Below are positions 7,611 to 10,740 of a DNA stretch of 64,000 nucleotides, one piece after another. The stretch's first letter is position 1. Every line of letters starts with the position of its first letter. Source of the DNA: Alphaproteobacteria bacterium (GTDB lineage Bacteria; Pseudomonadota; Alphaproteobacteria; MPNO01). A model generated the notes under the pieces. The model saw only the letters and a program-made list of their open reading frames with translations. It was not told the origin of the DNA and made no database searches. The stretch spans positions 320,001-384,000 of the forward strand of contig OZ219866.1 in assembly GCA_964291675.2 (NCBI GenBank), in the 5' to 3' direction. The position numbers and the translations under genes were made by a program.

Positions 7611-8036
7611 TCAGCCCTTCGTCCGCCCGATCGTGAGCCGCACCGGATCGCCGTCCTCGACGCCCAGCGCCTCGCGCAGGCCGATCTCGGCGACGATCTC
7701 GATCTGCGCCGGCGGGTAGCTCTCGACCTCGGGGTAGACGATCGCCGCCTCGATCCTGCCCTCGACCAGCACCCTGTAGCAGCGCGCGTCGCAGTCATGC
7801 GGCCCGTTGCCGGGGTTCTCCATGCGGATCCCGGGCGTCTGCCGCAGCCGCACCCAGACCGGCACCGCGTCCGGGTCGTCGACCACGACGTTGAGGGTGC
7901 CGGGAAAGGGATCGATGCCGAGCCGTTCGACGAACTGCGCGCGCGCCCAGGGGAGCTGCGTGAAGTGCCGGCCCTGGCCGATGCCGCTGGCCAGCCGCCC
8001 CAGGATTTCCTCGCCCGTTCCGGATCGCCCCATCAT
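7611..8036 (-). CDS. ribK: CTP-dependent (archaeal-type, DUF120) riboflavin kinase-like protein
   Basis: 'G.LASGIGQGRHF', 'LGIDPFPGTLNV' and 'IEIVA...LREALG..DGD.V' match the DUF120 signature. Confidence 0.8.
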   Translation of the reverse strand: MMGRSGTGEEILGRLASGIGQGRHFTQLPWARAQFVERLGIDPFPGTLNVVVDDPDAVPVWVRLRQTPGIRMENPGNGPHDCDARCYRVLVEGRIEAAIVYPEVESYPPAQIEIVAEIGLREALGVEDGDPVRLTIGRTKG

Positions 8037-8232
8037 CGCGGCGGTAATGACAGCCGACCGTCCCGGGGTCCAGCGAAATCGCCCGCGTCCTTCGATACGC
8101 CTCCAAGTCGTCATGCCTGGCTGCCGGAACGAATCCGGCGGTGTTCCGCTGCCGTCCGGTCTGGATTTTCGGCGCGGGCTCCACGGCATGAACGAGACCG
8201 TCTCCGTTCCCCCTCTTATCGGCCCTGTACCC

Positions 8233-8341
8233 TCGTCATGCCCCCCCAATCGTCATGCCCGGACTTGATCCGGGCACCCATGCAGCCTCTCGGCGCGCAC
8301 GGCGGCCGGGCGGGAAAGGTGTTGGCGGCAGTGGGTGCCCG
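8233..8341. repeat. REP-like palindromic repeat, left part (interrupted by the IS)
   Basis: GTCATGCCCGGACTTGATCCGGGCACCCA; similar to the intact copy at 14368..14538. Confidence 0.85.
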
Positions 8342-8420
8342 ATGGAGTGGACGCCCCCTCCGACGGCATCTGTGTGCCAAAGTGGCGGTGTCATCAACCC
8401 ACTTGGAGGAGGGAGCATCC

Positions 8421-9452
8421 ATGGCCGAGGTTAGCATGATCGGGATCGATCTTTCGAAGCGGAGTTTTCAGCTGCACGGGATGTGCGCGGACGGCTCGGT
8501 GGGTTTCCGCCGGACGCTGAGCCGCGGCAGGCTGCTCGCCTTTCTGGCGCGTCAGCCGCGCTGCGTGGTGGCGATGGAGGCGTGCGGGGGCGCGCATCAC
8601 TGGGGTCGCGAGATCCTCGATCTGGGCCATGAGGTGCGGCTGGTGCCGCCGGTCTATGTGAAGCCCTTCGTGAAGCGCCAGAAGAACGATGCGGCGGATG
8701 CGGCGGCGATCTGCGAGGCGGCGTCGCGGCCGACCATGAGCCTGGTTGCGGTGAAGACGGCCGAGCAGCAGAGCCGCGGCATGCTGTTCCGGGTGCGCGA
8801 TCTCCTGGTGCGCCAGCGCACCCAGGCGCTCGACGCGCTGCGCGGCCATCTGGCGGAGTTCGGGCTGGTGGCGCCGAAGGGTCCGGCGAGTGTCGGCAAG
8901 CTCGCGGTGGCGCTGGAGGCTGCGCGGGCCGGTCTGCCGGACCGGGTGGGCGAGCTCGCCGGGGTGCTGCTGGAGCAGATCGCCGGGCTGGACGAACAGG
9001 TCGCCGAGCTCGACAAGGAGCTGCGCGCCGAGGCGCGGCGGGATGCGGATGCGCGCCGGCTGATGACCATACCGGGGGTCGGGCCGGTCACCGCGATGGC
9101 GATCCAGGCCTTCGCGCCGCCGCTCGACGGGTTCCGCCGCGGGCGCGACTTCTCGGCCTGGCTCGGGCTGGTGCCGCGCCAGCACACGACGGCCGGCAAG
9201 CCGCGGCTGGGCAGGATATCGAAGATGGGCCAGCGCGATCTCAGGCGGCTCCTGGTGCTCGGCGCCATGTCGGTGGTCCGCAGCGCCGGGCGCCACGACA
9301 CGGTGCGCGACCCGTGGCTGGCCGGGATGCTGGCCACCAGGAAGCCGAAGAAGCTGATCGCCGTGGCGCTGGCCAACCGCACCGCGCGCATCGCCTGGGC
9401 GATGACCACGAGACAGCAGAGCTACCGGGCGCCCGCGCCGAACACCGCCTGA
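8421..9452 (+). CDS. IS110-family DEDD transposase/recombinase
   Basis: GIDLSK, MEACG and KNDAADA (DEDD); IPGVG; WLGLVP; strong GGAGG RBS. Confidence 0.95.
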   Translation: MAEVSMIGIDLSKRSFQLHGMCADGSVGFRRTLSRGRLLAFLARQPRCVVAMEACGGAHHWGREILDLGHEVRLVPPVYVKPFVKRQKNDAADAAAICEAASRPTMSLVAVKTAEQQSRGMLFRVRDLLVRQRTQALDALRGHLAEFGLVAPKGPASVGKLAVALEAARAGLPDRVGELAGVLLEQIAGLDEQVAELDKELRAEARRDADARRLMTIPGVGPVTAMAIQAFAPPLDGFRRGRDFSAWLGLVPRQHTTAGKPRLGRISKMGQRDLRRLLVLGAMSVVRSAGRHDTVRDPWLAGMLATRKPKKLIAVALANRTARIAWAMTTRQQSYRAPAPNTA

Positions 9453-9717
9453 GCGCGGCGGATGCGGGCCGCCGTCGGCAGTGCGGGCGAGGTCTGAGGA
9501 CGGGTAAGGACAAACGGTCGATGAGACGGGATCGGGAAAACCAGTTTGATCCGGCGCGCCGAAGAGCACGCGTGCCCGATTTGGACCCGATCCGCGTATG
9601 CCATACAGGCCCGCGGCGCCGCATAGGCCGCAAGCAGAGGCCGCATAGACGACAGCACCTGACCGCACTGTCCGAACCGTTCGAAAAAAACCTTGCACCG
9701 CCGGGGGCGTCCATAGA
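9453..9717 (+). ncRNA. putative bridge RNA/seekRNA of the IS1111-group element (ends approximate)
   Basis: Stem GGATCGGG (9529)/CCCGATCC (9586) encloses TTGATCCGG and GTGCCCG, which match the target; CATAGACGA (9644) matches the donor junction. Confidence 0.8.
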
Positions 9718-9757
9718 CGGATCAAGTCCGGGCATGACGATCGGGGGCCATGACGGG
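9718..9757. repeat. REP-like palindromic repeat, right part
   Basis: CGGATCAAGTCCGGGCATGACGAT is the reverse complement of the left arm. Confidence 0.85.
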
Positions 9758-9786
9758 TTGCGGGAAGGGCGCGGCCGGAGGGGCCG

Positions 9787-10740
9787 CTACGCGGGATCAG
9801 GGGCGGGCGACCGGTGCGTTTGCCGCGCGGCTTCGCCGCGCACCCAGTCGCGGAACGCCCTGACCCCGGGCCGCTCCAGCGCGCCGGGCGCGGTGCAGAG
9901 CACGTAGGAGGCGGGCGCGGGAACGCCGCTGCCGAAGAGCGGAACCAGAGCCCCCCGTTCGAGCTCGTCGGCGATCATCCTGGCATGGCCGAGGGCGACC
10001 CCCATGCCCTCGACCGCCGCCCGCACGGTCATGCTGTGCGACTGGAAGCCGGAGGCGAGGGAGAGGTCGGCCGGGGCCGCGCCGTGATGCGCGAACCAGT
10101 ACGCCCAGTGGGGCGCCCAGCCGAGGTCGTAGAGCAGCGGCCAGCGGTGCAGGTCGTGCGGCTCCGCGGGGCGGGCGTGCCGGCGCAGCAGCGCCGGACT
10201 GCATACCGGAACCAGCGTCTCCTCGAACAGCGTCTCGCAATCGGGGGCCGCGTCGACCCGGTCGGTGAAGGCGATCCACGCATCGAAGTCCCGCTGCGCC
10301 GGGGCGAAGGCGCCGCGGTCGGTCTCCACCTCGACGGCCAGATGGGGGTGGGCGGCCTTGAAGCCGGGCAGCCGCGGCGTCAGCCATTTCTCCGCCACCA
10401 CCTCGACCGCGACGAGCTTGAGCCGTGGCTCCCGGCCGCCGTTGCGCAGCCGGGCGTTGGCCTGGCGCAGACCGGTCAGCAGGCGCCGAACGTCCTCCAG
10501 ATAGGCCTCGCCCTCGGCGGTCAGCCGAACGCCCTGGCTGTGACGGGTGAACAGCGCTACGTCGAGACACCGCTCCAGGCACTTGACGCGATAGGCGATG
10601 GCGGCCGCGGTGATGCCGAACTCCGAGCCGGCCGCGACGAAGCTCCCGAGGCGCGCCGCCGCTTCGAAGAAGGGCAGCGTATCCAGCACGCGCGAATCGG
10701 GCGGTTGCGTCTTCGGCGGGATCTGCGAGGGGCCGTGCAA
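9787..10740 (-). CDS. LysR family regulator (GcvA-like)
   Basis: 'FEAAARLGSFVAAGSEFGITAAAIAYRVKCLE' HTH; 'PVCSP' and 'G.GVAL' in the substrate domain; start uncertain. Confidence 0.9.
   Translation of the reverse strand: MHGPSQIPPKTQPPDSRVLDTLPFFEAAARLGSFVAAGSEFGITAAAIAYRVKCLERCLDVALFTRHSQGVRLTAEGEAYLEDVRRLLTGLRQANARLRNGGREPRLKLVAVEVVAEKWLTPRLPGFKAAHPHLAVEVETDRGAFAPAQRDFDAWIAFTDRVDAAPDCETLFEETLVPVCSPALLRRHARPAEPHDLHRWPLLYDLGWAPHWAYWFAHHGAAPADLSLASGFQSHSMTVRAAVEGMGVALGHARMIADELERGALVPLFGSGVPAPASYVLCTAPGALERPGVRAFRDWVRGEAARQTHRSPAPDPA

Follow-up and report, generated by a model that had tools for sequence, protein, structure and literature searches.

The window analysed here, an alphaproteobacterial stretch of 64,000 nucleotides (nt), carries at positions 8342-9717 what is, with very little doubt, an autonomous insertion sequence (IS) of the IS110 family, IS1111 group, encoding a DEDD recombinase together with a predicted bridge RNA, or long seekRNA, aimed at a repetitive extragenic palindromic (REP) sequence of its host. 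Four observations carry this reading: the anatomy of the element, its site-specific insertion in 4 of 4 genomic copies, the conserved fold of the RNA region, and the covariation of the guides in that region with the flanks and ends of the elements that bear them. The mechanism itself is not new: RNA-guided targeting by IS1111/IS110 elements, including into REP sequences, was shown in 2024, and the present element is a further, well-supported example. We class it as a member of the known IS1111 seekRNA/bridge RNA kind, since every testable defining feature of that kind was found, save for one point concerning a T-A motif in the transposase, which is discussed below.

Guides, their covariation with flanks and ends, and the RNA fold

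GTGCC-CG (8335-8341) adjoins the element on its left side, and CG-GATCAAG (9718-9726) on its right. The empty site that follows from these observed boundaries is GTGCC-CG-GATCAA, as had been reconstructed correctly in the original prediction. The parts of the element and of its target are listed below, with positions in the window.

8342..9717, + strand: the whole insertion sequence, 1,376 bp (four full copies, identical junctions, and relatives with the same end architecture)
8335..8341, + strand: left half of the target (GTGCC) and one CG core, identical to the sense guide at 9572-9578
9718..9739, + strand: second CG core, then the right target half GATCAAG and the remaining REP (to ...GGGCATGAC)
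8342..8358, + strand: left end, made of the terminal extension ATGGAG (8342-8347) and the left subterminal inverted repeat TGGACGCCCCC (8348-8358)
9703..9717, + strand: right end, made of the right subterminal inverted repeat GGGGGCGTCCA (9703-9713) and the terminal extension TAGA (9714-9717)
8421..9452, + strand: transposase gene, 343 amino acids (aa) and stop, with a GGAGG ribosome-binding site upstream
9516..9664, + strand: predicted bridge RNA/long seekRNA of about 149 nt, closed by helix P1 (GGTCG 9516-9520 / TGACC 9660-9664)
9529..9593, + strand: target-binding stem-loop, with helices P2 (9529-9536/9586-9593) and P2b (9541-9542/9583-9584) and the apical hairpin P3 (9556-9559/9566-9569)
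9546..9554, + strand: guide complementary to the target top strand, TTGATCCGG, the reverse complement of C+CG+GATCAA
9572..9578, + strand: guide complementary to the target bottom strand, GTGCCCG, that is left flank and core
9600..9652, + strand: donor-binding loop, with GCCAT (9600-9604), helices P4 (9608-9611/9639-9642) and P5 (9613-9617/9627-9631), and CATAGACGA (9644-9652)

Guide and donor strings stand where the original prediction had put them (TTGATCCGG at 9546-9554, GTGCCCG at 9572-9578, CCAT at 9601-9604 and CATAGACGA at 9644-9652), and so do the two strands of the closing stem, GGATCGGG at 9529-9536 and CCCGATCC at 9586-9593, a stem that covaries across relatives. The two target guides overlap on the CCG of the target and occur in the IS1111-type order, 9546-9554 preceding 9572-9578; in copy 2 of the element, a C at 9545 extends the antisense match to 10 nt. 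As for the donor loop, its 5′ segment CCAT is the reverse complement of the left-end ATGG, and its 3′ segment reproduces the right end, the core and the first left-end base. This second loop had been read as matching the predicted circle junction CATAGA-CG-ATGG; both segments do so (CCAT over 4 nt only), and the match covaries across relatives. A single sequence of this sort is suggestive, and the decisive support comes from the relatives.

Relatives were surveyed in one genome per species, which gave 80 listed loci with transposases 58-75% identical; 456 further confirmed relatives lie outside this set. Both inverted repeats were located in 63 loci, the window's own included, and 18 loci with no right repeat in the scanned range were left out. 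Four loci (L023, L032, L040 and L048) were then dropped for a poorly complementary right inverted repeat, leaving 59 elements and 46 distinct target 16-mers. The 44 elements with full flanks were used, L058 and L065 (short flanks) being left out. All relatives share one architecture, left flank - core (CG/TG) - ATGGxG...element...xxxA - core - right flank, with widely different targets.

The 7-mer made of an element's own left flank and core was found in sense orientation in the non-coding region of 33 of the 44 elements, against 129 of 1,846 (7%) for the 7-mers of other elements. For the reverse-complemented 7-mer of core and right flank, own matches were found in 13/44, compared with 3.1% for those of other elements. 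Wrong-sense controls gave 0/44 and 4/44. Where both exact matches were present, their spacing was 25 nt in 10 elements out of 11 and 24 nt in the last one. Over the aligned guide windows of 38 distinct pairs, own matches average 6.61 and 6.82 nt, versus 3.35 and 3.22 nt for those of others. The summed guide-target match amounts to 510, whereas permuted pairings gave 256.4 (standard deviation 11.5, maximum 316), and none of 20,000 permutations reached 510. The 3′ segment of the donor loop equals the last five right-end bases, the core and one left-end base in 38 of the 44 elements, with 10 different matching 8-mers, and it tracks the variants ACACA-CG, ACATA-CG, ATAGA-CG, ATACA-TG and ATAAA-TG. 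In most elements the 5′ segment reads CTCCAT, complementary to ATGGAG, and it becomes CGCCAT where the left end reads ATGGCG. Comparison of loop sequences with flanks had been suggested as a check on the prediction, and it shows that both loops covary (510 versus 256.4 for the target loop, 38/44 for the donor loop). Some flanks were misassigned, owing to duplicated right ends (L039, L057, L086) or to the end of a sibling element (L062). The counts were kept uncorrected, and the reported match rates are therefore slightly conservative; the true flanks of L039, L057 and L086 fit their guides.

The fold of the RNA region was derived with RNAalifold from 38 non-identical sequences (alignment A1, positions 9508-9670). 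The consensus comprises six helices, P1, P2, P2b, P3, P4 and P5. Standard pairs occupy 99.0% of 1,062 cells, versus 20-45% when the partners were slid by 1-3 columns, and compensatory, two-sided changes affect 13 of 28 pairs, versus 2-5 in the slid controls; on none of five measures did any of 500 shuffles attain the observed value. Related sequences may beat shuffles without any structure; more weight attaches to the slid controls and to the double changes. P1 is paired in 98.9% of cells, with compensatory changes in 2 of its 5 pairs. Compensatory changes are found in 6 of the 8 pairs of P2, and the target-loop helices are paired in 98-100% of cells; P3 has one C-A mismatch in this element. 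Numerous G-U pairs are compatible with the transposase-gene (+) strand only. With the covariance model of this RNA family (R1), the window copy scores 153 bits. A search of the genome with this model found no solo RNA copies, only the four element copies being matched.

Target repeat, genomic copies and transposase

Position and orientation in a REP-like palindrome are the same for all four copies, whose junctions read (G/A)TGCCCG, element, CGGATCAAGTCCGGGCATGAC; copy 4 has A for G at target position -5. CG is present on both sides in 4/4 copies, and the relatives have CG or TG on both sides. Copies in unrelated sequence had been named in the original prediction as the observation that would count against it; all four sit at the same REP position. 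The unbroken 13-mer target GTGCCCGGATCAA (GTGCC-CG-GATCAA) occurs 67 times in the host genome (4.8 Mb, 69% G+C, two contigs, 93.7% complete), and 4 of 71 exact target sites (67 empty and 4 split) are thus occupied. The 26-nt palindrome has 285 genome copies within 4 mismatches, and its stem arms change together (CCCGG/CCGGG versus GCCGG/CCGGC). As to the suggestion that an abundant intergenic repeat serves the element as a safe harbour, the abundance stands, with these 67 exact sites, while the intergenic position was examined at the window locus only.

The REP family occurs for the most part as inverted ('-+') doublets, which resemble REPINs and number 72 pairs genome-wide, with modal spacers of 57 and 78 nt. 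In the window, the repeat interrupted by the element (8335 onward) is the right-hand one of such a doublet, a 57-nt spacer separating it from the left-hand one (8252-8277), listed here:

8252..8277, - strand: inverted REP copy upstream of the element, followed by the 57-nt spacer 8278-8334

A Y1 transposase of the RAYT type (REP-associated tyrosine transposase, PF01797) had no match in the 93.7% complete genome; the control search matched 6 of 14 reference genomes. The REP family extends through the genus, being found in 10 of 11 congeners within 2 mismatches. Among the matches listed, congeners mostly carry ATGCCCGGAACAAG, and the guides of the present element fit GTGCCCGGATCAAG, of which there are 67 in this genome: the guides fit the REP variant that is abundant here. 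The RNA family is present in 9 of the 11 congeners. The three best-scoring RNA matches there have guides directed at (A/G)AGTC-CG-GGCA..., which belongs to the opposite arm of the REP palindrome; L017, L018 and L021 show this target as well. In none of the 11 congeneric genomes was the exact guide pair found and, among the matches listed, no relative exceeds 75% protein identity, in agreement with the earlier view that the mechanism is known and the guide pair may be new. Congener G004 shows a large expansion, with 27 matches to R1 compared to the 4 copies here: 18 score 158.8 bits, one scores 144.6 bits, and the other 8, of a second type, score 74.5 bits.

All four genomic copies are full. 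Their length is 1,376 bp in two cases and 1,359 bp in the other two; identity is 100% for two copies and 98% for two. They account for four repeats of 1.36-1.38 kb in the annotation of the host genome. The transposase open reading frame (ORF) is intact in 4/4 copies, and copies 1 and 2 differ by 3 bases only, all non-coding. On the left, about 95 nt of flank are common to all four copies, the flanks being unrelated to each other farther out; on the right, copies 3 and 4 have 180 nt in common, a dispersed repeat with further near-full copies elsewhere. We conclude that the four copies lie at four separate loci. Three changes are common to copies 3 and 4: an 18-nt deletion (9579-9596), by which P2b and P2 each lose their 3′ strand; one additional A; and the substitution L42V. 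Within the element these two copies do not differ at all, yet they lie at different loci, which indicates recent movement, even after the deletion arose.

The subterminal inverted repeats of the element are 11 bp long, within the 7-17 bp of the IS1111 group, and are placed 6 nt and 4 nt in from the ends; of 81 loci scanned, 63 have both repeats, at conserved distances. Non-coding DNA amounts to 79 nt on the 5′ side of the gene versus 265 nt on the 3′ side, the longer region being downstream as in the IS1111 layout. The transposase matches Pfam PF01548 (DEDD_Tnp_IS110, E = 1.4e-12) and PF02371 (E = 2.6e-22), and scores 319 bits against a cut-off of 140 with NCBIfam NF033542, 'IS110 family RNA-guided transposase'. 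Assignment to the IS1111 group, as originally proposed, is borne out by these Pfam and NCBIfam matches, the subterminal repeats and the long 3′ non-coding region. The length of 343 aa is inside the IS1111-family range of 330-350 aa, and the protein is 39-40% identical, over 98% of the query, to the IS4321/IS5075 family transposases found on plasmids (IS1111 family). Its DEDD residues are D10, E53, D90 and D93; among 39 distinct relatives, E53 is conserved in 38 and the three aspartates in all. Among solved structures, the sole sequence matches are the C-terminal domains of the ISCro4 (E = 8.6e-13) and IS621 (1e-10) transposases. The C-terminal motif (family motif GL-P----S/T-G) reads GLVPRQHTTAG at residues 249-259, with T-A in place of T-G: A258 (codon at 9192-9194) replaces the glycine adjoining the presumed nucleophile. 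Relatives present in metagenome runs have G at 9193, which restores glycine at codon 258.

Proposed mechanism and alternative explanations

By analogy with ISEc11, ISPa11 and IS621, the element would work as follows. A bridge RNA of about 150 nt, encoded 3′ of the gene on the same strand, with an outer helix enclosing two stem-loops, would be transcribed with the transposase gene or downstream of it, processed, and bound by a recombinase tetramer; that the RNA is made and protein-bound is what the published work on these three elements leads us to expect. In loop 1, TTGATCCGG would pair with the target top strand (core and right half) and GTGCCCG with the bottom strand (left half and core), the two guides jointly reading the 13 bp GTGCC-CG-GATCAA of the REP-like palindrome. 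In loop 2, CCAT and CATAGACGA would read ...CATAGA-CG-ATGG..., the sequence formed where the ends of the excised element are joined; the element would presumably pass through a circular intermediate. Thr257 of the T-A motif is a possible nucleophile, and strand exchange at the shared CG core would lead to insertion at one REP position in one orientation. Circularisation may also create a promoter across the junction, as suggested by one consensus match:

9693..9698, + strand: TTGCAC, a -35-like hexamer (consensus match), which after circularisation would stand 17 nt upstream of the junction-spanning GACGAT

Of 38 distinct junctions, 28 have a TTG(C/A)(A/C)-type hexamer at the same distance. 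No circle junction was found in the contigs of the sequencing runs examined.

Several points weigh against an RNA-guided element of this kind. Upon shuffling (5,000 dinucleotide shuffles of 9453-9702), a sense match of at least 7 nt through the core arose 991 times, and the 7-nt sense match alone is therefore weak. Eleven of the 44 relatives have no exact left 7-mer, and an exact right 7-mer through both core bases was found in only 13; missing exact matches are partly due to alignment register and to duplicated right ends misread as flanks. The left-end guide is only CCAT (4 nt), one base short of the family consensus CTCCAT. Folding of the single sequence was no better than that of shuffles (z = -1.34 and -1.49), the minimum-energy fold pairs the two guides partly with each other, and an Rfam scan of 8000-10000 (E <= 1) returned one chance-level match inside the coding region and no bridge-RNA family. 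Contigs of two RNA libraries extend over parts of 9095-9604, mostly from relatives, and contigs cannot show transcription. They are mostly 90-95% alike, over parts of the gene and 9457-9604, with one 88-nt piece identical at 9457-9544, and the best RNA-library runs contained under a tenth of the sampled sequence words. In the protein, the motif is T-A here as opposed to T/S-G in 38 of 39 relatives, and the S/T-G glycine is reported to be necessary in the relative Piv (PMC11187229). T-A variants nevertheless occur occasionally in natural IS1111 members (PMC11187229), so that the motif does not exclude membership. Lastly, the 3′ strand of the target-loop stem is lost in two of the four copies.

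Three other explanations were considered. In one of them, the matches are due to chance, or to captured REP fragments without guide function, which we hold to be extremely improbable. The genome is 69% G+C, 7-nt sense matches are frequent in shuffles, as just mentioned, and the target is abundant, which makes the capture of a REP fragment conceivable. But reverse-complement matches of at least 9 nt arose in 77 of the 5,000 shuffles, and both matches together in only 19 (0.4%). Moreover, the matches lie at fixed scaffold positions, in opposite senses and split at the core; the helices around them covary; and the same positions match different flanks in relatives, with no permutation out of 20,000 reaching the observed total. 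Alternatively, the site could be set mainly by protein recognition of the REP hairpin or structure, RNA pairing being a secondary check. All four copies are in a hairpin-forming REP, copy 4 tolerates a mismatch at target position -5, and a 2026 preprint (10.64898/2026.03.19.712850) reports that the target stem-loop of ISPpu10 adds specificity beyond base pairing. However, relatives with the same scaffold and protein hit many REP-unlike sequences and their guides change accordingly, sister elements in congeners hit another position of the same REP with correspondingly different guides, and orientation is fixed by asymmetric loop bases that the guide reads. All this makes a primary role of the REP structure very unlikely.

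The design may also be RNA-guided and the element decaying or inactive in this host, its copies being relics and its guides a record of past activity. The replacement by A258 of a glycine kept in 38/39 relatives, the left-end guide short by one base, the occupation of only 4 of 71 exact target sites, and the 18-nt deletion in two of four copies, which lowers their R1 score from 153 to 97.6 bits, all go in that direction. We nevertheless consider it unlikely: ORFs are intact in all four copies, copies 1 and 2 are only 3 non-coding bases apart, copies 3 and 4 are identical at different loci, which points to recent movement after the deletion, and the T-A motif is reported in natural IS1111 members (PMC11187229).

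Rearranged RNA modules and known systems

The 18-nt deletion of copies 3 and 4 starts exactly after GTGCC-CG, the left-flank guide and its core. Its right boundary has no half-match to any guide, and slippage at a 2-nt microhomology is therefore at least as likely as a deletion made by the recombinase. For the spread of the deletion, either the target-loop stem is dispensable, or the RNA was supplied by intact copies, or gene conversion took place.

Other rearrangements of the RNA module were seen among the relatives. L093 (1025-1594, - strand), from the same-genus genome G008, contains four perfect copies in tandem, repeating every 142 bp, of a unit that extends from just after the left-flank guide core (AAGTC-CG, then ATTTGG...) through the donor loop to the right end and CG. 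All its joints read right end-CG-ATTTGG, as if the right junction had recombined with the guide-encoding DNA by a half-target match; 'half-match' recombination, as described in a bioRxiv preprint (10.64898/2026.08.31.748434), is a comparison case for this array. In L057, at about 280-620 nt downstream of the transposase stop codon, there is another perfect tandem array, whose period is 131 bp and whose joints read right end-CG, then TATCTCCATAC, at the CG directly before the left-end guide. Right-end duplications of 30 nt and 10 nt were found in L039 and L086, respectively. A tentative and rather doubtful explanation would be that guide-encoding DNA, which amounts to a half-target, acts as an internal pseudo-target of the element's own recombinase, or fragile site, that reshapes the RNA module, and that copies 3 and 4, defective in the target loop, were spread by guide RNA supplied in trans by copies 1 and 2.

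Several of the closest known systems belong to the IS1111 group. The matches of IS1111 seekRNAs to the two target strands cover overlapping parts of the target, and the one for the top strand comes 5′ of the one for the bottom strand (Siddiquee et al., PMC11187229). ISPa11 inserts in the REP of P. aeruginosa, and its transposase co-purifies with long and short 3′ non-coding RNAs (PMC11187229). Like the present element, it is of the IS1111 type, uses one position in the REP of its host, and has the top-strand match first; it differs by its host, REP and guides, the comparison being with its published description rather than its sequence, and the present element being known from sequence alone. 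A case of natural retargeting is provided by ISEc11 and ISXne4, in which the stem is conserved and the target-matching bases are replaced, with transposases about 72% identical (PMC11187229). The relatives studied here, at 58-75% identity, are retargeted likewise in 38 distinct guide pairs, and the P1-closed RNA is of about 149 nt. For ISEc11, a short RNA of about 82 nt with the target guides and a long form of about 154 nt were described; the short form was enough, the long form being left without an assigned role (PMC11187229). In the present clade, we would argue that the long form carries donor recognition, since the match of the second loop to the ends covaries strongly (38/44), a point on which ISEc11 differs.

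Durrant et al. (PMC11208160) predicted, for 93% of IS1111 elements, a right-end bridge RNA containing target and donor loops. IS621 (IS110 group; PDB 8wt6) also has one RNA with a target and a donor loop, two guides in each around a hairpin, and a shared core dinucleotide (PMC11208160). It differs in having the RNA 5′ of the gene, the guide order reversed, very short subterminal repeats and a distantly related protein. IS4321 and IS5075 belong to the same class of elements with subterminal inverted repeats, and their transposase is alike over the full length; their targets are the terminal repeats of Tn21-family transposons, not a chromosomal REP. L062, one of the relatives surveyed, sits within a sibling element, inside the right inverted repeat of the latter (GGGGG-CG-TCCATAGA-CG), and the antisense guide of L062, TTCTATGGAC, matches this site; an element aimed at the end of its own relatives recalls IS4321/IS5075, aimed at transposon ends. 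ISPpu9 and ISPpu10 (IS110 family, Pseudomonas putida) insert in REP sequences as here; ISPpu10 circles form a hybrid junction promoter, and ISPpu9 makes several kinds of circles (PMC12288879). The small RNA of ISPpu9, Ssr9, was reported not to be required, and it exists in solo copies, unlike the RNA of the present element, of which no solo copies were found in the genome.

In this clade a single conserved scaffold, about 150 nt long, carries 38 natural guide pairs, a compact set from which programming rules of the IS1111 type can be read. A guide of about 6-10 nt corresponds to core and right flank, and one of 7 nt to left flank and core; the core is CG or TG, and the donor segment tracks five right-end bases. 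The solved structures that match this protein in sequence (ISCro4 and IS621) are of the IS110 group only.

Minor observations concern the surroundings and occurrence of the element. Near-identical pieces were found in two runs labelled sponge metagenome (X2, X3). In the window, the ORFs on either side of the element encode 212 aa (7611-8249, - strand) and 317 aa (9787-10740, - strand). A second, distant IS110-family transposase fragment or gene (L005) is located in the host genome at G000:C2:1586610-1586936, with 67% nucleotide identity over 327 nt.

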